Shown here: piece by piece, positions 5,636 through 36,293 of the stretch | Layout: the number at the start of each line of letters is the position of its first letter | Position numbering within the stretch: the stretch's first letter is position 1 | Virus record (IMG/VR): IMGVR_UViG_3300027509_000014 | Length of the DNA stretch: 64,000 nucleotides | Direction: 5' to 3' (one strand) | Source: a virus | The notes under the pieces: model-generated | What the model was told of the DNA's origin: nothing | Databases searched by the model: none | Seen by the model: the letters and a program-made list of their open reading frames with translations, nothing else | Program-made: the position numbers and the translations under genes

Positions 5636-5687
5636 TCGGAATCTAAAACAAGTTGCTTTTGGTGGTCATTTAAGATAGGATGCAATC

Positions 5688-6506
5688 ATGAAAGTACTAA
5701 TGGTGGGCGACACCCACGGCAACCCTCGCTGGATGATCAAAGCTGTGTATCCAGCGGCTAAAGCTCTTGAGATAGATTTGATATGCTCCTTAGGTGACTT
5801 CGGTTTTTGGCCAGATCACAACGGGAATAATCCTTTTTTGGATACTGTTTCCGAACTAGCATTTGAATCAGATATTCCGCTTTATTTCATCGACGGCAAC
5901 CACGAGAACCATGACCAGCTTGACCACGATGCCGATGAATTTGTGGAGATCCTTACCAGACTTTACTACATTCCTCGTGGCCATGCTTGGACATGGGGCC
6001 AGACAGACTTTGTGGCGCTTGGTGGTGCTTGGTCTATCGACCACAAGTACCGTACGCTTGGCTTTGATTTATTTAGAGAAGAAGAGCCTGACAAGGCTCA
6101 GATCGAGCGGGCCATGTCACATACGGCTGACGTAGTGCTCACCCATGACTGCACCATCCCGGCCTTTGATTATCTCTATCCTCCCGGCTATGGTCGGGTA
6201 GAGGGCGGCATGGGCACTCGGCGCGCTATTGGCGAAGTTGCAGTCAGTTCTGGCGCAGCGTTAAACATTCATGGCCACCATCATCATAGCTATAGTAAGA
6301 TTGTACGATTGCACGTTGGTCATCCCACTGAAACCTCTTTGCTTTCCGTTGGGCTTGCTAATGAATTCGCCAACAGAAACATGTTGATCCTAAACACTGA
6401 CTTTGATAAAGAAGACCCTAATTGGATCGAAGGATTTGTCCAACCCAAGTGGGGTACATTTCCGCCTGATCAAGGCTACAAAATTAAGAGGCTTGAAGAT
6501 GTATAG
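5688..6506 (+). CDS. calcineurin-like metallophosphoesterase (leaderless)
   Basis: GDTHG, GDFG, GNHEN, THD, HGHHH motifs; TTGCTT-N17-TAGGAT promoter ends 6 nt before the ATG. Confidence 0.9.
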   Translation: MKVLMVGDTHGNPRWMIKAVYPAAKALEIDLICSLGDFGFWPDHNGNNPFLDTVSELAFESDIPLYFIDGNHENHDQLDHDADEFVEILTRLYYIPRGHAWTWGQTDFVALGGAWSIDHKYRTLGFDLFREEEPDKAQIERAMSHTADVVLTHDCTIPAFDYLYPPGYGRVEGGMGTRRAIGEVAVSSGAALNIHGHHHHSYSKIVRLHVGHPTETSLLSVGLANEFANRNMLILNTDFDKEDPNWIEGFVQPKWGTFPPDQGYKIKRLEDV

Positions 6507-11382: not shown

Positions 11383-11828
11383 GACGGCCAGGCAACACCT
11401 ACATGACTGCCCCACCAATATAGCCTCACTTCACCCCAAAAGCAACCTCAATCTCAGATTTCTTTTTCTTTTGGCGGGTTGCTTTCCACCTTTGGCACCG
11501 CTAGGGTTCTTCCTCGGCGGGGCTGGTCTCCTTCTCCTTGGCCAGTCCCGCTTTCTATTTTCCGGTAACCATCATCCAGGCCACTGTCGCCTGCTCGGCG
11601 TCAGGGAATGTCTGATCGAACGCATGTTCCCCACCCCACCAGATCCGATTGGCTTCGGTGTCGAACCTTGCCAGTGTGTTGTTTGCGGAAACTTTCTCAG
11701 TTCTAATCATTTTGTTTCTCCTTGGTGCCTTCGGTTGTTTGATGTGTTGGTTTGTCAGCGCCGCCGCTCTGTGTCTTTATTCTATCTGTATCGTTAAGGT
11801 TCGTCAACCTGTTTTACAGATTCTTTTA

Positions 11829-22335: not shown

Positions 22336-22381
22336 CCAAGGTCAAGTTGCAAACCATATCAATAGGAGATAGGATACTCAT

Positions 22382-22639
22382 ATGACTACAAACGACAACC
22401 AAGCAAGCGGAATCGAACGACTACGCCAAACCCAGAAGGCTCACAAGGCTTTTGCTATCCTGGCGGCGCAGGGCCGTCTGGGTACTCGCAGCGATGTCAA
22501 GAAGCTCACTGATGAGCTTGAGTACGGCCAGAAGATTCTGGACCAGTTGGCTCAACTGGTCGGACGCCGAACGTTCAGCCATACAACTGGGCTGATCCTG
22601 CGGACGATGCTGCTTGAATACGCATTGTACCTGCCATGA
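22382..22639 (+). CDS. hypothetical protein (leaderless)
   Basis: TTGCAA-N17-TAGGAT-N6-ATG. Confidence 0.7.
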   Translation: MTTNDNQASGIERLRQTQKAHKAFAILAAQGRLGTRSDVKKLTDELEYGQKILDQLAQLVGRRTFSHTTGLILRTMLLEYALYLP

Positions 22640-24456: not shown

Positions 24457-24503
24457 ATATAAACCACGTTGCAATGCCCTATTCGATCCGATAAGATGTC
24501 TTT

Positions 24504-24761
24504 ATGGAAACCACACAGAATGCCAATCCAATCCGCCGCATCGTCGTACTGGTGCCAACGGCAACTAATATCCCCGAAATCGAGCGTATCGAGGCCTACC
24601 TCTACGGCAACTTCGAAGTCACCGATCAGCGTCGTGAGTCCATGCTGGACGATCACTACACCGAGGTCACCATCTCGGGTCGTGACTCTGCTGGCTTCAC
24701 CGCAGAAGCTCAGGCCGATAGGTTGTGGTCTGGCATGATTGGTGCTAGAGTAGTGGCGTGA
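24504..24761 (+). CDS. hypothetical protein (leaderless)
   Basis: TTGCAA-N17-TAAGAT-N6-ATG. Confidence 0.75.
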   Translation: METTQNANPIRRIVVLVPTATNIPEIERIEAYLYGNFEVTDQRRESMLDDHYTEVTISGRDSAGFTAEAQADRLWSGMIGARVVA

Positions 24762-25202: not shown

Positions 25203-26000
25203 ATGGAAACTAAAGACTTGAAGCATGAGGTAGAACAGCTTGGACCTATCGAGTTAGAAGATCTTGATATGCAGATCTTAAAGGTCGGAGGTTGTGTGCG
25301 AGACGAGATTATGGGCACGCCTACCAAGGATGTTGACTTTGTCGTTCTTGTAGATTTGGAGCGTTTTACTACAGTTGAAGAAGGCTTCAACCATATGTAC
25401 TCAGAGCTTCAGATGGCTGGATTCAAGATTTTTGTGGAAACCCCCGAGCACGCCACCATACGTGCTCAGTTCCCGCCTCACATGCGTGACGCCTTTGGAG
25501 GGGTGCGTGACGCAGACTTTGTACTCGCACGCAGAGATGGCCCCTACACCGATGGTCGCAGACCTGACTGGGTGAAGCTGGGCACGCTAGAAGATGATTT
25601 GGCCAGGCGTGATTTCACCATGAACGCCATTGCTCAAGATTCAAACGGCAACCTGATTGATCCCTATCATGGCCAGGTTGACATTAGCGTCAAGGTGCTG
25701 GAATTTGTGGGTGCCCCCATGGATCGTATCACCGAGGACGCTTTGCGTGTTATACGTGGGCTTCGCTTCATGATCACCAAAGACCTTGTAGCATCGCCCA
25801 GCGCGTGGAGCGCTATGTTGAGCGATGAGTCTGCAAAGGCCCTAGCTCTCATTGCTGAAGAGCGAAGAGAGTCAGAGCTTCGCAAGATGATCGAACATGA
25901 TCCTATTGAAGCGATCAGCCTGTTGGATTCTTTGCCACGAGGGTTGCGGGAAGCTATCTTTGCTGGTAGGGTGAGGCTCACAACAACACTGAAGAAGTGA
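25203..26000 (+). CDS. cca: class II tRNA nucleotidyltransferase (CCA-adding/poly(A) polymerase family), short form
   Basis: VGGCVRD, DVDFVV, EDDLARRDFTMNAIA, EDALRVIRGLRF. Confidence 0.88.
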   Translation: METKDLKHEVEQLGPIELEDLDMQILKVGGCVRDEIMGTPTKDVDFVVLVDLERFTTVEEGFNHMYSELQMAGFKIFVETPEHATIRAQFPPHMRDAFGGVRDADFVLARRDGPYTDGRRPDWVKLGTLEDDLARRDFTMNAIAQDSNGNLIDPYHGQVDISVKVLEFVGAPMDRITEDALRVIRGLRFMITKDLVASPSAWSAMLSDESAKALALIAEERRESELRKMIEHDPIEAISLLDSLPRGLREAIFAGRVRLTTTLKK

Positions 26001-26048
26001 CAACAACGCTAAAGAATTAAAATCGACCCGTAGTAACATTGGCACGAC

Positions 26049-26195
26049 TCGCCGCAACCGGCTCCTACCTAGGATGGAGCGTATCGCTTGCAAAGAGTAC
26101 GGCTAGGAACAAATTCATAGACCAAAGCCACAGATCTTTTATCCGGTGTGGTGGGCAAACTATGCGTTGGTGAGTTCGACCCTCACCTGCGGGAC
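26049..26195 (+). ncRNA. possible expanded tRNA-like RNA
   Basis: T-arm GGTGAG-TTCGACC-CTCACC; 3' TGCGGGA pairs with TC(G)CCGCA at 26049; 5-bp hairpin at the D-arm position. Confidence 0.35.
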
Positions 26196-26226
26196 TAAAT
26201 AAGGACACAAACAAGAAGAAACGCAA

Positions 26227-26593: not shown

Positions 26594-27380
26594 AATTCAG
26601 TAATCTCTGTAAAAATTGAAATAATTCAATATATCCAATTTCTATATTTCTGACAACGTCGATTTAGACATTTCTGACATTTCTGACATTTCTGACGAAC
26701 TTTCGGTTTTCCTCACTTGGCCGGAAGTTTCGTCGCGTCTGGGGTTGTGTTTCGTCTGAGTGTGCTGTATGCTGTATGTATGGACGATATATTCAAAGTA
26801 CACCTATTGCCCTCAGAGCTTCTATCTGACGCTATTGAGATCATCGAAGATAGAGGCTGGCGACAGTATGGCAATTACGATATTGCGATTAAGGATGGCG
26901 ATCTTTGTGGCCGCGTGTGCATGATGGGTGCCTGTAGCGCCGCTGTGAGTTTGGCTGGCTCAGCCATAATCCCTTACTTCCAAAACCCTTTTGATCAAGA
27001 GCCTGACAATTTTAGAGAGGCTACAGAAGAGTTGGTTGCTCAAGTCAATGGTCGAGTACCCCAATTCTGGAACGACAATGAGGGCCGAACCAAAGAAGAG
27101 GTTATCACATTGCTAAACAAAGCACGAGTCGCTCTAGAAGCCCGAGGCCGCTAAGCCCGCTCCCGAAGCGGCTCGCCCGAGCCGCCCGCCGAACATACAT
27201 ACTATATACTTTTCTGTTTTCCCATCTGCCATATTGGCGCCCCGCTGACCGAACCAGGAGGCTCTGAGACTAAAATCTCAAAAATGAGAAATGTGTATCA
27301 CAAAAGATACGAGTGTCTCAAAGCAGAGACATTGTTCTCATAATAGAGATTACATTCTCAAAAGTGAAACCAAAACGCCA
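26594..27380 (+). other. tripartite element copy 2
   Basis: (CATTTCTGA)x3 with last ATTTCTG ending 26694; CCATCTG at 27222; palindromes at 27265, 27285, 27305, 27325, 27345. Confidence 0.85.
26780..27154 (+). CDS. DUF6197-like small protein (paralog 3, leaderless), filler of element copy 2
   Basis: TTGTGT-N17-TATGCT-N6-ATG; AIEIIEDRGW...VCMMGAC...WNDNEGRTKEEV. Confidence 0.75.
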   Translation: MDDIFKVHLLPSELLSDAIEIIEDRGWRQYGNYDIAIKDGDLCGRVCMMGACSAAVSLAGSAIIPYFQNPFDQEPDNFREATEELVAQVNGRVPQFWNDNEGRTKEEVITLLNKARVALEARGR

Positions 27381-27828: not shown

Positions 27829-28041
27829 ATGGAGTCACTAACGGTAGGCGGAGCCTATGGGCGAGATTACAAGTCCAAAAAGGCCGTTCTGGCAGACTGG
27901 AACGCAAACAAGGATTTTCAAATTCTGAATATGGGTCCTGATTGTGGGAGATATCTCTCAAAATCAGACACCGAAGGGATGATGATTCACGTTCGGTACA
28001 ATGCTCTCATGAGCATTACGTCGGTGCCATCCGAGGAATAA
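27829..28041 (+). CDS. hypothetical protein
   Basis: AAGGAG SD; AYGRDYKSKKAVLADW pattern. Confidence 0.75.
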   Translation: MESLTVGGAYGRDYKSKKAVLADWNANKDFQILNMGPDCGRYLSKSDTEGMMIHVRYNALMSITSVPSEE

Positions 28042-28122
28042 AAGAAACTTTACTCGATAGGTTGCAACGTCGCACCCTATCGAGTAAGGTAATCATCACA
28101 AGCCAATAAGGAGAAACACACA

Positions 28123-28368
28123 ATGAACAAGCCAGCAGATTACACCAAAACATTTTCAAAAGAGGCCGCTTTTGCCTTCGCCGCCATTGTTTGCCCTATG
28201 GGTTTGAGCGGCGACGTTGACGACTGGCACAACTTTCGCGAGTGGGCCGTGGATCACGCTTTCGGGTTTGCATACGATGGGCCAGCGACACCGGCGCTGA
28301 TGAGTCATGTTGCTGAATGGGCCGATATGGAATCGGAATCCGCATGGATGCGAACGCAAGCTGAATAA
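28123..28368 (+). CDS. hypothetical protein
   Basis: Own TTGCAA promoter; AAGGAG SD. Confidence 0.75.
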   Translation: MNKPADYTKTFSKEAAFAFAAIVCPMGLSGDVDDWHNFREWAVDHAFGFAYDGPATPALMSHVAEWADMESESAWMRTQAE

Positions 28369-28392
28369 ATTTTAGAAAATCCCCCCGATAGG

Positions 28393-28470
28393 TTGGCATA
28401 GCGGGCCAAACCCGCTATGCTGGCCTTATCGGAGGGAGGAAGGACGACACGCCCCCTGCATGGCTTTATT
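28393..28470 (+). ncRNA. promoter plus GGAGGGAGGA-leader short RNA, copy a
   Basis: TTGGCA-N17-TATGCT; GGAGGGAGGA starts 10 nt after the -10 box. Confidence 0.5.
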
Positions 28471-28660
28471 TAATATATTTTAGGGGTCCTCCCGTCCTAC
28501 CCCTCTGCGTTTTGCGCTGGGGCCGCTTGGGCTGCTGCCTAAGCGTACCGACTTTACAACGAAAAACCAACTTTCGCTAGAAAGAAATAACCTGTAAAGA
28601 AAACTTTTGTTCCCCAATTTTGGGGTTGGCATAGGGTGTGTAATCCTATAAGATACTCAT

Positions 28661-28879
28661 ATGAACAACACACACACACCAGCCAGCAGAATCATACAGG
28701 ACTTTCTCACCGAAAATCCGGGCACCACGTTTGGTGCGCTGCGATCACACGTGGCGCTTATGGACGCCCTGCCCATGCGCCAGGTGTCTCGCGAGCTTCG
28801 CACATTGCGTGAGCTTGGCGACGTTCTCACGAACGGCATCGACGGCAACAACGGCATCCTATGGTGGAACGAGCGCTAA
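28661..28879 (+). CDS. small HTH-like protein (leaderless)
   Basis: TTGGCA-N17-TAAGAT-N6-ATG; VSRELRTLRELG helix pattern. Confidence 0.7.
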   Translation: MNNTHTPASRIIQDFLTENPGTTFGALRSHVALMDALPMRQVSRELRTLRELGDVLTNGIDGNNGILWWNER

Positions 28880-28984
28880 GACAAAGTTCTCAAAAGAATT
28901 AGCGCTTAGGGTTGCAAGTCGTAGCTTTAAGCGCTAGATTACTACTCACAAGCCCGCAAGGGACACACACAAGGAGTACACACA

Positions 28985-29869
28985 ATGACTACGCAATTCG
29001 CCATCATGAAAACCTCAGAGTATCGTGCAGAAGTCAAGCGATGTAAGGCCGTGCAGGCCAGCCACCGCGTTGCCAACGGTATGGCCGCAACGACTCCTCG
29101 GGTTCTATCCGCACCTAAGGATATCTCAAAACTCGATAAGTCCGACACGGCTATCTACGGCCTAGCATTGGCCCAGAGTCGTCTTAGCGGGTTCAACGTT
29201 TGCCCACACTCCACACCGGACTGTGTGTCGTCTTGCGTAGGCAAGAATGGCAACGGTGCATTTAAGAGTGTCAAGCATGCTCGCATCGTTCGGACAAAAT
29301 TCTGGATCGACCACCCACAAGAGTTTCGCTTTCTCATAGCTCACGAAATCCGTTCGGCGCTGGTGCGCCATAACGGAAACGTAGAGTTTCGTCTCAACAC
29401 GTTTAGCGACGTTGAGTGGCAGACAGTAGCGCCAGAATGGTTTGCTATCGACGGCGCACACTTTTACGACTACACCAAAAATTGGGATCGTGTCGATATC
29501 TTCGGGAATTACTCACTGTGCTACTCGGTGACCGAACACACCACCGATGAGCAGATTGTCTCACGTTTGAGCGCAGGCGATACCGTTGCTATGGTTATCA
29601 ACGTACGCGGTGGCTACATCGCCAAAACTACAGACCTTCGACCTATCCCGACCAGCTTCGCAGGGTTCGATATCATCGATGGCGATAAGGAAGAAAACCG
29701 AGCCAGCGATCCCGCTAGCACGATTGTTGGCCTACGGGCAAAAGGATCTATGTTGCGCAAGAGCATGGCGCGACGTGTTGACACCATCGACGGTACGCTT
29801 GCCGTACTGCCAAAAGAAGCGCACACGGTTGCGGTCAAGCTTGGCCGCGGAGGTAAGGTACTGGCCTAG
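28985..29869 (+). CDS. GP88-like protein (radical-SAM-like fold)
   Basis: VCPHSTPDCVSSC; FRLNTFSDV; FYDYTK; IVGLRAKG. Confidence 0.8.
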   Translation: MTTQFAIMKTSEYRAEVKRCKAVQASHRVANGMAATTPRVLSAPKDISKLDKSDTAIYGLALAQSRLSGFNVCPHSTPDCVSSCVGKNGNGAFKSVKHARIVRTKFWIDHPQEFRFLIAHEIRSALVRHNGNVEFRLNTFSDVEWQTVAPEWFAIDGAHFYDYTKNWDRVDIFGNYSLCYSVTEHTTDEQIVSRLSAGDTVAMVINVRGGYIAKTTDLRPIPTSFAGFDIIDGDKEENRASDPASTIVGLRAKGSMLRKSMARRVDTIDGTLAVLPKEAHTVAVKLGRGGKVLA

Positions 29870-30187
29870 GCTAAGGCCGGTCTTAGATCGGCTCTAAGGG
29901 TTAGTGTGTGACCCTTAGAGCATCATTGCAGTGAGCTAGTCGGTATGTGTGGCCGACTAGCTCACTTTGCTTTTTGCGCTCATTTTTGAGAGTAAAGTCT
30001 CAAACCTAAGACTCACTAAAAAAACTCGGGATTAGCCCTCGTGGTCCATTCTGACTTAAAAAAAAAGAAAGTCAAGTAGTTTTGTAAAGTTTCTTTTACC
30101 CAAAATTGGGGTGCGAAATAGGTTGCTATTCTGTTGGCAATGTGTCTATAATGTGCATACACACAACCGGCTACGGAAGGCTTAGTA

Positions 30188-30526
30188 ATGATAGACATAA
30201 ATACAGATGAGGTATTTGACACCAGGGATTTGATTGAATGGCTCGAAGATGAAGATAACAAAGAAGACGATCCAGAACGCTATCAATTTATGAAGAGATT
30301 AGCCTCTGAACTCATCGACAACTGTGTCGATTATAGCTACGGTGAGACCGTCATCCCTAAGTCGGAATTCACCGAATACGCCAAGCAGCTGGCCGAAGAT
30401 GTCTTCGAAATGCCGAGTGACCTTCGCTGGCCGCTCACCTGCATCGATTGGGATGAAGCGGCCAGCGAGCTACTGATAGACTACACAGAGATTGAATTGG
30501 ATGGGGAAAACTGGTTTGTGAGATAA
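30188..30526 (+). CDS. acidic ArdA-like antirestriction protein candidate
   Basis: Very D/E-rich; EYAKQLAED...IDWDEAASEL resembles the ArdA C-terminal domain. Confidence 0.6.
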   Translation: MIDINTDEVFDTRDLIEWLEDEDNKEDDPERYQFMKRLASELIDNCVDYSYGETVIPKSEFTEYAKQLAEDVFEMPSDLRWPLTCIDWDEAASELLIDYTEIELDGENWFVR

Positions 30527-30812
30527 GGCTTTTCAAAACATTTCTGAAACATCCCGTCGCTCCAAAAGTGGGGTGGCGGGATGTTTCTCGGTTTTGGGGT
30601 TGTAAAGTCGTGGCCCCTAGGCTATGATGTAATCACACAAGCAAAAGGAACACACAATGAGCTTTTCACACTGGTATAACATCGACAACATGACCGACGA
30701 GGAAATTTGGGAACTCGAAGAGTCGTTGGCCGACGCTGAAATCGACCGCCAGATTGACGCACGTCGAGAGGAGGCTTGGAACTAAATTCTCACAAAAACT
30801 TTACCCCCGAGG

Positions 30813-30951
30813 TTGCCAAACGGTAGTCTCGGGGGTACACTTCGTTTTACGGAGGGAGGAACGAACACACCGCCCCTGCACTGGTTTGATTTACAAAATC
30901 TCTGGGTGGCCCGTCGTAGTTCATTCTGACGACCTTACCGTCGAATGTCAA
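30813..30951. ncRNA. convergent promoters enclosing GGAGGGAGGA-leader short RNA, copy b
   Basis: Plus: TTGCCA-N17-TACACT. Minus: TTGACA-N17-CAGAAT. Conserved sequence between them. Confidence 0.6.
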
Positions 30952-31043
30952 GACATTTGTAAAGTTTCTTTTACCCAAAGTTGGGGTTGCAAACCGTTTG
31001 TGGTCTGCCTATAATGTAGTCACACACAAGTAAAGGAACCAGT

Positions 31044-31376
31044 ATGAGCAATTATCCCGCACCCCTTACCATCGCAGAACTTCGCACAGCTCGCAGCTCG
31101 GTACTGTTCTCACTTGATCAAGCCACCACCAACGGTGAGCGCGCTGCGCTGCACCTCCTCGTGAAACGTCTTGATGCACTGATTCCTGCCGAATTGCAGG
31201 AAGTCGCCCGCATGGCCGACATCGTTGTACGGTACCATGCAACAAAGGACTATATCGACGCTATTGGCGACCTCCGCGCCCACTACCCAAGCCTGTCACT
31301 GCGTGAGGCTTATCACGCTGTAAAGAAGGCATACGACGACATCGGTCGCCCTATCCCTGCTCGGCCATCTCGATAG
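31044..31376 (+). CDS. hypothetical protein with bL12-CTD-like C-terminus
   Basis: YIDAIGDLRAHYPSLSLREAYHAVK. Confidence 0.65.
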   Translation: MSNYPAPLTIAELRTARSSVLFSLDQATTNGERAALHLLVKRLDALIPAELQEVARMADIVVRYHATKDYIDAIGDLRAHYPSLSLREAYHAVKKAYDDIGRPIPARPSR

Positions 31377-31412
31377 TTTCACGTGAAACATCCCGCCGTC
31401 CCAAAAATGGGG

Positions 31413-31550
31413 TTGCCAAAAGGTAGCCTCGGTGATAAAGTTTTGCCTACGGAGGGAGGAACGACCACACCACCCCTGCACTGGTTTGATTTATAAAATC
31501 TCTGGATGGCCCGTCGTGGTTCATTCTAACTGACCGATAGGCAAAGTCAA
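31413..31550. ncRNA. convergent promoters enclosing GGAGGGAGGA-leader short RNA, copy c
   Basis: Plus: TTGCCA-N17-TAAAGT. Minus: TTGACT-N16-TAGAAT. Offset 600 bp from copy b. Confidence 0.6.
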
Positions 31551-31658
31551 GAGATATATAAAAGTTTGTTTTACCCAATATTGGGGGTGCGAATAGGTTG
31601 CGAAAATGTTTGCAACCTGCTTATAATATAGACACACACATCCAACGAAGGAACTAGT

Positions 31659-32153
31659 ATGATAATCGAGACCGAATACAAGACGGCAAGCAACCTTGCC
31701 GAATACCTAGACCACAAGGCGACCGACCCCGAATGGGTATCCGAACAGGGTGGCCAATGGGCTTGGAACCATGCTGGCCTCATTGCAGTCACCCGAGTCC
31801 GTGAGTACGTCATTCTCACTGGTGACACCTTCTACGAAGGTGTCATAAAGTGCGAGAATGTTGACGCCGCGATCAAACTCGAAATGGAGTATGGTGTCTA
31901 CAGTGAGCATGACATTACGGTCAACGCTTACGAACGTCGGATCTACGATGGCGATTCACGCCAAGGCATCGACGTACCCAAAACCGATGGCGGTGATGCC
32001 GAGTGGCTCAAGCTGGCCGCTAAGGCTGTAGATGAGTACTGCGAGGCAACAGGGTGCTACCCCACCCCATGGGTTAGCTATGACTACTACGGAACCCCTG
32101 TGGGCTACCTTCACAACGATGGCAGTGTCAACCAAATGAAGGTGTTGTCATGA
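31659..32153 (+). CDS. hypothetical protein
   Basis: Own promoter; GAAGGA SD. Confidence 0.75.
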   Translation: MIIETEYKTASNLAEYLDHKATDPEWVSEQGGQWAWNHAGLIAVTRVREYVILTGDTFYEGVIKCENVDAAIKLEMEYGVYSEHDITVNAYERRIYDGDSRQGIDVPKTDGGDAEWLKLAAKAVDEYCEATGCYPTPWVSYDYYGTPVGYLHNDGSVNQMKVLS

Positions 32154-32257
32154 CTTAGGCACAACGACTCCAAGCCCGCCACCCCAGTTTTGGGGTGGCG
32201 GGATGTTTCTCGTTTTACAGGTTGCTTTTGTGTTGGCCATGCTCCTATAATGTTGAT

Positions 32258-32806
32258 ATGACAAACACACAAACAATCCCAAGCCCACGGACCCAAGCAA
32301 TTGCAGCGATGGACGCCAAAATTGCAGCCGGTGAAAAATTCGCTCCGCACGAGGTAACTTCGGAGCTGCACCGTATTGCGGTCAACTACGTTGAGCACTA
32401 CTCTGGCGATTTCTCCTACTTGGTGTCGATGACTGATCGTCTTGCCAACGGCTACGCAATCAACGCCAATCAGGCTAAGGGCATTCTTAACTGCTTGCTG
32501 GCCGAGCGCCGTCGCAATCAGCGCAGCACCGAGCCAGCGCCCGAGGGTATCCACCTTTTCCAAAACGAAGTTTACAAAGTACAGGCTAACAAGGCCGGGA
32601 CCGCAACGTACGCCAAGAAGCGTGTGGGGAGCCGTTGGGAGTACGTTGGCCAAGTAGCCTCACTGTCACCAGCCACGCTGCTTACATTGGCTCAAGCCAA
32701 GGCCATCGGCCATGAGACGGGCCACTGTGTAATGTGTGGCCGTGAGCTTACGGTCCCCGAGTCCGTCGCCGCTGGGATCGGCCCAGTGTGCGCTAAGAAG
32801 TTCTAA
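32258..32806 (+). CDS. DUF6011-like zinc-finger protein (leaderless)
   Basis: CVMCGRELTVPESVAAGIGPVCAKK; TATAAT-N6-ATG. Confidence 0.8.
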   Translation: MTNTQTIPSPRTQAIAAMDAKIAAGEKFAPHEVTSELHRIAVNYVEHYSGDFSYLVSMTDRLANGYAINANQAKGILNCLLAERRRNQRSTEPAPEGIHLFQNEVYKVQANKAGTATYAKKRVGSRWEYVGQVASLSPATLLTLAQAKAIGHETGHCVMCGRELTVPESVAAGIGPVCAKKF

Positions 32807-33024
32807 GACACTCGCTAGCGCCCCCGCCATAATGGCGGGGGTTGTTTGCGTTTTGCTCACCGTCGAGCACGCCAGTGTGCGCAGACTGTGGGCCTGCAAA
32901 AACTCGGGGTGGCCCGTCGTGGTTCATTCTAACTGACCTATAGGCAAAGTCAAGACATTTGTAAAGTTTATTTTTCTTCCTCGACAGGTTGCAAAACCGT
33001 TTGCGATGTGCCTATAATGTGTAC

Positions 33025-33201
33025 ATGACAAACACCAAAGACCCACGTTCCTTCAAAGAAGCACTTGATGCCCTCCACTCATCGGCTGACCGCAACGGAC
33101 GCCTACACCATGGGGATCACTCGCACGGCCGACAGGGCCAAGCGCTTGACCGTAGCGCAGCCAACGACTTGCGCATTCTGAGCAAGTTTTCCCAAAGTTG
33201 A
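33025..33201 (+). CDS. small His-rich protein (leaderless)
   Basis: TTGCAA-N18-TATAAT-N6-ATG. Confidence 0.65.
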   Translation: MTNTKDPRSFKEALDALHSSADRNGRLHHGDHSHGRQGQALDRSAANDLRILSKFSQS

Positions 33202-33367
33202 TAATCCAATTGCGAAAAGAGTCCCGATCACTTAGGTCGGGACCCTATCGCGTTTTGAGTTTTGTGACAAAATCTTTGGGTGGCCCGTCGTGGTTCATTC
33301 TAGTATATCCACAGACAAAGTCAAGACATTTGTAAAGTTTGTTTACTCACGACACTCATAAAAACCG

Positions 33368-34209
33368 AATTCAGTAATTACTGAGAAATTCAAAAAATTC
33401 AATATATCCAATTTCGGTATTTCTGGTGAGACTGAAATACCTTTTTCTGACATTTCTGACATTTCTGAGGCAATCTATCAAAACCTGATAACAAATTATC
33501 TCACGACAGGGTTGGCATTTCATCACTGCTGCCCCTATAATGTCTATACACACCTAAACGAAGGAAACGCTATGAACGTAACCGCAGACAACCTGAACGA
33601 TTTCATGACACTTGACCGTGTGGTCACTGTCCACAACGACGGCACCGTGAGCGATGCGCCAGGCCTAAGCGCCCCTGAGATTTGGGATGGCGAACTCGAA
33701 TCTTCCAATTGGGAGATCTTTACTAACCATACGGCCCAGCAGGGTGGTGGGAGCACCATGCACAACTGCGAGCATATAGGCGGCAGGCTGGCTAATGACA
33801 TACTGGCCGAACCGGGCACCTATGCAGCCGTAGGGTGTTGGTGGCATCCTGAGACGCTAGACGATGATGTAGATATGGAGGGATGGGCGGTAGTCAAGCT
33901 GATCGATGCCTAATCGGGCCTTAGCGCCTAGCGCCCCGAGCGCCGCGCCGGTGCGCCGCCGAAAAGTATAGTATATATATACTTTTGTTTTCCCATCTGC
34001 CATATTGGGGCGCCCCGGCCGAGAAAGAGAAAATTTTTGAGACTAGAATCTCAAAAATACCCCAATTATAGTATACCACGAAAACTTGGGGGTGTCAACC
34101 CCCAATATTGGGGTATAGCGATATTTTCTTGCGCGAGAATATTTTCTCACAGCTGAGACATGGGTTTCACAGCTGAGCGCGCAATATCAGTTTTGAGAAT
34201 AGCCTCTCT
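33368..34209 (+). other. tripartite element copy 3
   Basis: CATTTCTGA repeats with last ATTTCTG ending 33467; CCATCTG at 33993; palindromes at 34038, then 34134, 34154, 34174, 34194. Confidence 0.85.
33572..33913 (+). CDS. hypothetical acidic protein, filler of element copy 3
   Basis: TTGGCA-N18-TATAAT promoter; GAAGGA SD. Confidence 0.75.
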   Translation: MNVTADNLNDFMTLDRVVTVHNDGTVSDAPGLSAPEIWDGELESSNWEIFTNHTAQQGGGSTMHNCEHIGGRLANDILAEPGTYAAVGCWWHPETLDDDVDMEGWAVVKLIDA

Positions 34210-34953: not shown

Positions 34954-35311
34954 GGTTGTTCACCGTAAAGACACCACCCCAAAAACGGGGTGGTGTCTTT
35001 TGCGTTTTGAACCGATACACTCAAGCCACACACACACATATAGGAGAATAAAATGGCAGTAGTAACCTACAAAGAGGCAGAAGTTCAGCTAGATACGGAG
35101 AATGGAATTTTTGCCGGTGGCAACGTTCAGGCAATTTTTGACCTAGTTGCATCCGTCGATGGCCACGGCAATTACGTCGCGAACGAGCGCAACGTTGACA
35201 GGTTGCTAAGTGACCTGATCGCAGACTAGTAGCTAGCTAGGCCCTACGGTAGCCCCCAATACCGTAGGGCCTATGGTACTTACTAACCACCCACACACAT
35301 AGGAGATTTTC

Positions 35312-36169: not shown

Positions 36170-36293
36170 GCCAGCCAGCCAGCCAGCCAGCCAGCCAGAC
36201 ACGCCCCTAGGATTTTATTCCTAGGGGCGTGTTGCGTTTTGTCATGCTCGTGTGCTTATACTGTGGACACACACAACGAAAGAAGAAAATAAA

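Follow-up and report, generated by a model that had tools for sequence, protein, structure and literature searches.

Three gene-less units, each carrying a doubled Shine-Dalgarno (SD) tract behind a promoter, are present in the window analysed here, a stretch of 64,000 nt from an uncultured marine phage (IMG/VR record IMGVR_UViG_3300027509_000014), and as judged from their sequence they probably make short regulatory RNAs. The 10-mer GGAGGGAGGA occurs exactly at 28431 (copy a), 30851 (copy b) and 31451 (copy c), always on the plus strand and at no other site of the window; it was not found in the remainder of the 77.3-kb contig. Extended to the 12-mer CGGAGGGAGGAA the tract is still invariant, with exactly three plus-strand copies at 28430, 30850 and 31450. 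Chance expectation over both strands under a first-order Markov model is 0.08 copies of GGAGGGAGGA and 0.005 of CGGAGGGAGGAA; since b and c are duplicates, the three tract copies count as only two independent events.

Four features keep a fixed register in all three units: an early-class promoter, CGGAGGGAGGAA, a CA-rich stretch, and an invariant CCCCUGCA followed by a U-rich stretch. The initial annotation had placed the tract 10 nt past the -10 box of a dedicated promoter at three loci and had described a conserved CAC-containing block downstream; the exact matches and a common 40-nt register confirmed the former, and the latter was found as ACAC and CCCCTGCA, both unchanged across a, b and c. 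The units and the elements surrounding them are located as follows.

28390..28421, plus strand: promoter P(a), AGGTTGGCA-17-TATGCT
28428..28514, plus strand: predicted RNA a, ~87 nt, from fold, start-site geometry and terminator tail; start A28428, tract 28431-28440
28452..28461, plus strand: invariant CCCCTGCA block of copy a, complementary to the GGAGGG tract; possible alternative local 5' hairpin
30020..30097, minus strand: D3 copy without a GGAGGGAGGA unit
30802..30837, plus strand: terminator hairpin of the upstream 42-aa gene; overlaps P(b), whose -35 is in the loop; could also end a minus-strand RNA
30810..30841, plus strand: promoter P(b), AGGTTGCCA-17-TACACT
30848..30930, plus strand: predicted RNA b, with tract 30851-30860, CA-rich loop, CCCCUGCA, U-rich 30884-30894 and then the complement of the D3 leader; 3' end approximate
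30923..30951, minus strand: D3 promoter facing RNA b, TTGACA-17-CAGAAT
31410..31441, plus strand: promoter P(c), GGGTTGCCA-17-TAAAGT; homology to b starts at the -35
31448..31530, plus strand: predicted RNA c, with tract 31451-31460; 6/80 positions differ from b
31523..31550, minus strand: D3 promoter facing RNA c, TTGACT-16-TAGAAT
32898..32975, minus strand: D3 copy without a GGAGGGAGGA unit
33269..33346, minus strand: D3 copy without a GGAGGGAGGA unit; its RNA would stop at a bidirectional terminator at ~33225-33247

Promoters and predicted transcripts

The promoter class RGGTTGSCA-17-TAnnnT drives about 14 early genes of this phage; its pattern has 19 plus-strand matches versus 0.55 expected, 14 of them directly upstream of genes. 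The same pattern lies upstream of each of the three tracts, which bears out the dedicated promoter that had been proposed for every copy. All three tracts begin exactly 40 nt downstream of RGGTTG(G/C)CA, and the -10 hexamers TATGCT (a), TACACT (b) and TAAAGT (c) each lie 17 nt past the -35; with this fixed geometry the tract thus starts at the 10th nt after the -10 in every copy. The first 11 nt of P(a) are identical (11/11) to the promoter of a leaderless gene at 28623, 230 nt downstream. The leaderless genes of the phage set the promoter geometry, the ATG being the 7th nt past the -10 in eight of them, and for this reason we infer that each RNA would start 2-3 nt upstream of the tract, which would then lie at +3/+4.

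Over the promoter-to-tract stretch copies a and b share only ~43% identity, the -35, the -10 and the tract alone being conserved. Between b and c there are 6 differences in 80 transcribed positions versus 8 in 17 of the -10/discriminator region, and copy c resembles a duplication of b with its left end inside b's terminator loop.

RNA a is predicted to form a long hairpin (-28.3 kcal/mol, with a fold z-score of only -1.35) in which the 5' arm GGAGGG..AGGACG, holding the tract, pairs with CGUCCU..CCCCUC at 28493-28505, and which is followed by the tail UGCGUUUUG, a tail shared with eight gene terminators of the phage. A G+C-rich hairpin followed by a U tract is the form of an intrinsic terminator, and copy a would be a complete promoter-to-terminator unit with a predicted RNA of ~87 nt. 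It has no convergent promoter; the fold-back arm and the terminator tail stand in its place.

RNAs b and c would be ~45-85 nt long, with uncertain ends, and the genes downstream of both are SD-led. Both units run into a minus-strand TTGAC(A/T)-16/17-(C/T)AGAAT promoter of the D3 family, which has five copies. An identical 29-nt core of D3 is present in marine phage contigs that are otherwise unrelated, and in eight copies, other phages included, the spacer varies whereas the -35, the -10 and the first 25 transcribed nt are conserved; going by its sequence, the D3 promoter is real. Copies b and c had been described as near-identical over ~80 nt and as ending at a convergent promoter with an antisense role. 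The near-identity and the promoter stand, the latter conserved in the D3 family; but the 3' part of the similarity is a separate five-copy element also found without the tract, and convergent promoters with overlapping predicted transcripts, present by sequence in b and c, are absent from a.

Coding potential and relatives

No ATG, GTG or TTG lies within 15 nt downstream of the tract in any of the three copies, confirming the reported absence of a start codon at SD spacing. The first start-like codon of copy a is an ATG 20 nt downstream, opening a 7-codon ORF that is absent from b and c, and that of b and c is a TTG ~25 nt downstream; a and b/c have no ORF in common and their reading frames differ. 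The units are accordingly non-coding, as had been proposed. A micro-ORF or leader peptide on either strand was rejected, the frames showing neither conservation nor a coding-type substitution pattern; between b and c, the 25-codon frame on the minus strand shows five differences, none of them synonymous.

At Rfam 15 gathering scores only tRNAs match in the window, and at E up to 10 nothing relevant was found between 28300 and 33500. A blastn search of 28000-32000 against 50,697 phage records returned no match, the pattern GGAGGGAGGAANGANNACACNNCCCCTGCA had none in viral, metagenome and genome contigs, and a shorter unit pattern had none in viral contigs. No such unit was present in the GP88 relatives, which have 48-55% identity (L010-L012); the contigs sharing a 164-aa gene (L013 and L014) do not contain unit c, and the neighbouring proteins of 110 aa and 81 aa had no relatives. 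The phage's other assemblies match it at 100% identity and so offer no population variation. All the capsid relatives are actinophages, suggesting Actinobacteria. Two further candidates were discarded: a CRISPR-repeat mimic (RNA anti-CRISPR), with no match in 185,000 genomes, and a retron or tRNA-like RNA, Rfam and ARAGORN giving no match and no reverse transcriptase lying nearby.

Pairing of the tract and the preferred reading

Against a generic 16S 3' end, which may differ from that of the actual host, the tract has a pairing energy of -15.0 kcal/mol, placing it among the five strongest of the window's 128,000 14-mers. The invariant CCCCUG is complementary to the tract, and at every transcript length tried the tract is predicted to be ~70% paired; the local GGAGGG/CCCCUG hairpins are weak (-8 to -9 kcal/mol) and no better than those of shuffled sequences. 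One hairpin is common to a, b and c with two compensatory G-C/C-G exchanges, a covariation drawn from three sequences only and fitting either strand. When the 16S 3' domain was set against the units by eye only GGAGG and CCCCU aligned, and a longer complementarity extending past CCUCC was rejected. Also rejected were a G-quadruplex, four G runs being present in copy a only, and pairing with the CU-rich loop of a hairpin at 11516-11552, which is the terminator of the minus-strand gene 11555..11710 and does not have a, b or c among its best partners.

The explanation that we prefer, tentatively and as something possible rather than probable, is that the units make short non-coding RNAs whose start-codon-less 5' SD docks the 30S subunit as an end protector similar to STAB-SD. 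Host RNA polymerase would transcribe each unit into a short non-coding RNA starting 2-3 nt before the tract; the tract, at the extreme 5' end, would dock 30S through the 16S anti-SD and when undocked would fold onto CCCCUG. Docking would protect the RNA from 5'-end-dependent decay, on the principle of STAB-SD and other polypurine 5' stabilisers, leaving the regulatory work to the RNA body. In b and c this body would be perfectly complementary to the conserved stretch of ~25 nt with which the D3 transcripts begin, and therefore RNA b/c and the D3 RNAs could neutralise each other; the convergent promoters could also interfere mutually. The body of copy a would fold back on the tract and build the terminator.

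We counted in favour of this explanation the register kept in all three copies despite the low identity of a and b, the match of P(a) to a real leaderless-gene promoter, the rank of the anti-SD pairing, the absence of a start codon, the terminator tail of a, the compensatory exchanges, the conserved D3 promoter, and a transcribed part of b and c far better conserved than their -10/discriminator region. Counted against it were the predicted pairing of the tract, which any docking has to overcome, the lack of the downstream message that stabilisers normally protect, the failure of the searches above to turn up a homologue by which conservation could be judged, and the limits already given for the local hairpins and the covariation.

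Stabilisation of RNA by SD-like tracts that lack a start codon and bind 30S is established in Bacillus (PMC4113751); STAB-SD of the cry3A mRNA of Bacillus thuringiensis (Agaisse and Lereclus 1996) is one such case, and the 30S subunit sitting on it blocks the 5'-3' exonuclease RNase J1 (PMC4113751). The tract described here is likewise SD-like, predicted to be near an RNA 5' end, complementary to the 16S 3' end, and directs no translation. The cry3A element, however, is part of a long mRNA's 5' UTR and reaches the 5' terminus through trimming, whereas here a primary 5' end is predicted and no ORF follows; the tract is moreover doubled and maskable by a conserved C-rich partner, and its stabilising role is putative. 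An early RNA of Bacillus phage SP82, which Hue, Cohen and Bechhofer are said to have described in 1995, reportedly has a polypurine tract resembling a ribosome binding site at its 5' end, adjoining a long hairpin, the end being made by RNase III cleavage and the element stabilising the downstream mRNA. The units would share with it a tract of this kind at the start of an early phage RNA, close to a long hairpin, but their 5' end is a predicted promoter start instead of an RNase III cut in an mRNA, and no downstream mRNA follows.

Polypurine stabilisation has been shown in mycobacteria for katG, where it requires translation of at least 20 codons (PMC2358910). The katG case indicates that the principle works in Actinobacteria; its translational requirement cannot be met by the present units. 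Like CsrB, RsmY and RsmZ the units are non-coding, GGA-rich and, by prediction, promoter-driven, but those RNAs display many GGAs in loops of repeated hairpins and here the 5' end packs 3-4 GGAs into 14 nt. Lambda OOP (against cII), P1 c4 and P4 CI are short phage RNAs that remain untranslated and act by complementarity to another phage transcript. By sequence, units b and c resemble these pairs in overlapping the predicted transcript of a convergent promoter, and differ in that no protein-coding target overlaps, an antisense partner is missing for copy a and the sequences are not similar. Copy a, a self-contained promoter-to-terminator unit between two genes, is comparable to phage 'moron' cassettes, except that its cargo would be a predicted hairpin RNA of ~87 nt and not a protein gene.

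Alternative readings and implications

We assign a low probability to a cis-acting leader or attenuator, in which the tract would be a terminator arm (of the long hairpin in a, of the local GGAGGG/CCCCUG hairpin with its U-rich tract in b and c) and a 30S subunit or phage factor bound to it would block the hairpin and permit read-through into the downstream genes. In copy a the tract serves as the terminator hairpin's 5' arm; in b and c UUUGAUUU lies 6 nt past CCCCUG and resembles the spaced terminator tails of the phage; nearly every gene of the region is followed by a terminator, and the SD-led genes after b and c could be translated from a long leader. However, the gene after a lacks both leader and SD and has a promoter of its own, and therefore could not use a read-through transcript; strong promoters precede all the downstream genes, and the local hairpins have the weak, shuffle-like energies given above.

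Rather unlikely in our judgment is that the units are non-functional debris, namely duplicated promoter and leader fragments from illegitimate recombination shuffling gene cassettes. The region is mosaic: the gene after c is 92% identical in nucleotides in two other phage contigs, whose homology begins exactly at the start codon with unit c absent, c looks duplicated from b, with its left end in b's terminator loop, and a homologous unit was found nowhere in the searched collections. Nevertheless, copy a is highly diverged from b and c and has kept the 12-nt and 8-nt blocks and the promoter register, two pairs of the shared hairpin covary, and the start codon is missing in all three copies. 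Even as leader debris the units would document promoter-cassette shuffling in an early region whose small genes almost all carry a promoter and a terminator of their own.

The minus strand could instead be the functional one, a D3-driven small RNA with a single-stranded CCUCCCUCC acting as an anti-SD mimic that pairs with mRNA SDs and blocks translation; we consider this quite unlikely. The layout of copy b would be textbook for it, running from a near-consensus promoter through a 5' hairpin and an unpaired CCUCCCUCC to a strong hairpin and then a U run, and the D3 promoter is conserved across phages. But the D3 promoter is missing from copy a, the minus-strand terminator hairpin has been lost from c, the C-rich segment is absent from three D3 copies, and no Rfam family, the C-rich 6C sRNA family among them, matched at E up to 10; the sole promoter common to the three copies is that of the plus strand.

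Decidedly doubtful, too, is that the RNAs engage 30S through the double SD as decoys or as sensors of free 30S, with the conserved convergent promoter giving antisense control. In the sensor variant the SD tract would double as a terminator arm, and ribosome availability would therefore decide whether transcription stops. Either, if true, would be a novel means by which a phage senses or shifts the translation capacity of a host with many leaderless mRNAs.

We find it very unlikely that the asymmetric 12-mer at +3 to +14 is a DNA-level operator for a phage or host protein that blocks or stalls transcription, similar to the stoperators of cluster A mycobacteriophages: it is invariant without covarying, holds a fixed position just past three start sites and comes from a phage with actinophage capsid relatives, but there are only three sites, none controlling a gene, no candidate repressor was identified, and the tract/CCCCUG complementarity and the hairpin covariation point to RNA.

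The sponges proposed initially, titrating free 30S in favour of leaderless phage mRNAs or a CsrA-type GGA-binding regulator, are unlikely, and as a trans function of the RNAs very improbable: the tract is among the strongest anti-SD complements of the window and about nine early genes are leaderless, but most (~14 of ~23) are SD-led, the annotation itself having cautioned that many early genes have SDs, and titrating tens of thousands of ribosomes would need very high levels of RNA from three units with average -10 boxes, promoters of ordinary strength and a tract predicted to be mostly paired, while the GGAs are contiguous rather than in repeated hairpin loops, with no CsrB/Rsm family match in Rfam at E up to 10. 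CsrA is, to our knowledge, not known in Actinobacteria, the phylum that the capsid relatives suggest for the host, which further disfavours a CsrA sponge.

D3 is the more robust by-product of this analysis, a promoter with a conserved first 25 transcribed nt common to otherwise unrelated marine phages. If the RNAs of the three units are made and bind 30S, as our preferred explanation has it, they would represent the first small RNAs of a phage to be organised around an SD without a start codon; and since this phage mixes leaderless and SD-led genes, the units would then give access to the way in which phages deal with ribosomes or RNA decay in hosts of this kind.

The source phage and its early region

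The window is a portion of a 77.3-kb metagenomic contig (ENA ERZ27241782 k141_177564) whose sequence recurs in three other data sets at 100% identity; a DNA run listed for it carries the label marine metagenome. Judged from its sequence, the source virus is a tailed phage, with genes for a large terminase, a long major head protein, a tape-measure protein, GP88, DUF932 and RNA ligases, and a tRNA cluster. No nucleotide match to the window was detected among 50,697 phage records. The capsid protein search returned 431 records, solely phages of Actinobacteria, and the best terminase matches were Microbacterium phages. Several pentapeptide-repeat genes are also present; such genes are common in cyanobacteria.

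The region from 13 to 34 kb consists of small plus-strand genes, nearly every one with a promoter and a terminator to itself. The promoter pattern RGGTTGNNN-17-TAnnnT occurs 19 times on the plus strand against 0.55 expected, and a second promoter class has an 18-nt spacer and TATAAT. ATG is the seventh nucleotide after the -10 box in eight genes, which are thus leaderless and fix the geometry of the start site. Leaderless early-gene sites were noted at 5681-5690, 22375-22384, 24497-24506, 26773-26782, 28654-28663, 32249-32260 and 33018-33028. CA-rich codons, e.g. ATGAACAACACACACAC and ATGACAAACACAC, come after the leaderless ATGs of many early genes, and CACACA leaders precede the SD in SD-led genes. 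Several early promoters have a palindrome of the type ACCCCAAAATTGGGGT directly adjoining their -35, with a conserved TGTAAAGTTT before the palindrome; the palindrome may be an operator or upstream element. The terminators have an unusual layout, a hairpin followed by 3-8 nt and then (G)CGUUUU(G).

Palindromes and terminators of the window
28606-28626, palindrome
30097-30115, palindrome
30972-30990, palindrome
31572-31592, palindrome
34086-34112, palindrome
29930-29980, terminator
30546-30600, terminator
30802-30850, terminator
32175-32220, terminator
32820-32860, terminator
33225-33262, terminator
34967-35012, terminator
36200-36245, terminator

Three promoter units without a gene

The initial annotation had placed the doubled Shine-Dalgarno-like tract GGAGGGAGGA at three plus-strand units (a, b and c), each behind a promoter in fixed register, and this was confirmed: exact copies stand at 28431, 30851 and 31451, with no further copy in the window or in the 13 kb of contig outside it. 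The block invariant across the units is 12 nt long (CGGAGGGAGGAA; 0.005 copies expected), and all three tracts lie 40 nt after RGGTTG(G/C)CA with a correctly placed TAnnnT box. Over the 40 nt before the tract a and b are only ~43% identical, and their identities sit on the -35, the -10 and the final bases preceding the tract, the pattern expected of a promoter. That the units are recombination debris is unlikely. The promoter of a (28390..28421) shares its first 11 nt with that of the leaderless gene 230 nt downstream. From the leaderless-gene geometry the RNAs are predicted to start at A28428 (a), U/A 30848/9 (b) and U/A 31448/9 (c), so that the tract would span +3/+4 to +13. Equally, no start codon was found at SD spacing, as had been claimed: ATG, GTG and TTG are absent within 15 nt 3' of the tract in all three units, and no reading frame is common to a and b/c.

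No homologous units turned up when viral, metagenome and genome collections were scanned for the pattern, and Rfam gave no match for the units. GP88 relatives (48-55% identity) are without units. The 164-aa gene following c is present in two contigs at 92% nucleotide identity, where homology begins exactly at the start codon and the unit is lacking; no relatives of the other neighbour proteins were found.

The convergent D3 promoter

The 3' parts of b and c belong to a five-copy family, D3, of which three copies lack the GGAGGGAGGA unit. The minus-strand sequence of D3 is CTTGAC(A/T), a 16-17-nt spacer unrelated in sequence, (C/T)AGAAT, a conserved GAACCACGACGGGCCACCCNGAG and a U run, i.e. a near-consensus promoter in which the first ~25 nt predicted to be transcribed are conserved.

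D3 copies in the window and D3 core in two marine phage contigs
30020-30097, minus strand, D3 copy
30895-30972, minus strand, D3 copy
31495-31572, minus strand, D3 copy
32898-32975, minus strand, D3 copy
33269-33346, minus strand, D3 copy
L016:3198-3226, D3 core
L016:3921-3949, D3 core
L015:10904-10932, D3 core

Conservation of -35 and -10 around a free spacer speaks for a genuine promoter whose initial transcribed region is functional, bearing out the earlier observation that b and c face a convergent minus-strand promoter. The 29-nt core is 100% identical in L015 and L016, contigs otherwise without DNA in common with the window; there D3 is co-directional with leaderless genes, whereas in the window it is antisense to gene rows. 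By complementarity, the plus-strand RNAs of b and c would be antisense to the leader common to all D3 transcripts. Read as codons, the conserved start gives ATGAACCACGACGGGCCACCC (MNHDGPP), the next codon being AGA/CGA/AAA. In a cyanobacterial MAG, Leptolyngbya sp. (contig JAYKHF010000129.1, L020:1234-1263), 24 nt of the core, including TAGAAT, lie between divergent genes, a match that may be chance, ~four chance matches being expected for 19 specified bases.

RNA folding, anti-SD pairing and interpretation

An invariant CCCCUG(CA), 12-14 nt 3' of the tract, is complementary to it (CGG-GGG-GG with CC-CCC-CUG), and the mean unpaired probability of the tract is ~0.3 in all transcript lengths modelled. 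Of the two b/c differences within this segment, one lies in the loop and the other in a 1x1 internal loop. The local hairpins, at -8 to -9.5 kcal/mol, are weak, and shuffled sequences fold at least as well. In copy a the tract is predicted to pair instead with a distal arm (CGUCCU..CCCCUC), giving a long hairpin of -28.3 kcal/mol followed by UGCGUUUUG, the tail seen at eight gene terminators of the phage; copy a is thus complete from promoter to terminator, a unit of ~87 nt. A cis attenuator with the tract as terminator arm is unlikely to be the explanation. The tract is invariant where a hairpin arm should covary, which suggests recognition by a trans partner. RNAalifold proposes a hairpin common to a, b and c (A[C/G]GAC with GUC[G/C]U, CCCC with GGGG/GGGU) having two compensatory G-C/C-G exchanges, although from only three sequences and compatible with either strand. 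A C-rich sRNA from the minus strand, well formed at b only, is improbable.

A plus-strand non-coding RNA is indicated by the fixed-register promoter, the invariant purine tract near the predicted RNA start, its invariant C-rich partner and a U-rich stretch, all found in three of three copies. The "obvious" candidate partner for GGAGG would be the anti-SD of 16S rRNA. Set against a generic 16S 3' end, the tract ranks among the five strongest complements of the window's 128,000 14-mers and surpasses the SDs that precede genes of the phage itself. The window's strongest complement, GAGAGGAGG (-15.9 kcal/mol, 30765-30778), sits in the last codons of a 42-aa gene ~75 nt upstream of unit b. Hue et al. 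in 1995 reportedly described a polypurine stabiliser in phage SP82 early RNA that follows the same 5'-protection principle as STAB-SD of cry3A. The latter, a start-codon-less SD-like tract near the RNA 5' end, binds 30S and blocks 5'-end-dependent decay (PMC4113751); katG mRNA in mycobacteria is stabilised by a polypurine tract, translation also being required there (PMC2358910). Given these tracts and the anti-SD as partner, we rank first, tentatively, a short regulatory RNA whose 5' SD tract would dock 30S and so protect the end, while the remainder of the RNA would be antisense to D3 leaders (b, c) or fold into a terminator (a).

Compared with this docking-site RNA, a DNA operator is very unlikely. 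The same holds for the global sponge of the initial annotation, whether for ribosomes or for a GGA-motif binder, which is the least economical model because the units number just three and their -10 boxes are average, the tract is largely paired in predicted folds, the layout differs from that of CsrB/Rsm RNAs, and most early genes are SD-led, a weakness that the annotation had foreseen and that was borne out.

Other gene-less sites were noted. An orphan plus-strand promoter-like site in 11476-11562 precedes a 13-bp hairpin, whose loop is UCUCCUUCUCCUU, and a T run. The hairpin stands immediately beyond the stop codon of minus-strand gene 11555..11710 and may be its terminator. Two orphan promoters on the minus strand of L016 (~2600 and ~740) each precede a leader conserved between them, ACAAGCAAGCAGCCCCCAGGGGCTACCGCTC, with no ORF following; they differ from a, b and c in sequence but share the idea of a promoter without a gene. 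Within the CCA-adding enzyme gene, at its 3' end (25941-26200), a class-I promoter is aimed at a non-coding stretch; the phage would seem to make several non-coding RNAs from promoters of this class.

The units are a real, repeated, lineage-specific element, most likely small non-coding RNA units that place a known principle, the start-codon-less 5' SD, in a new arrangement.
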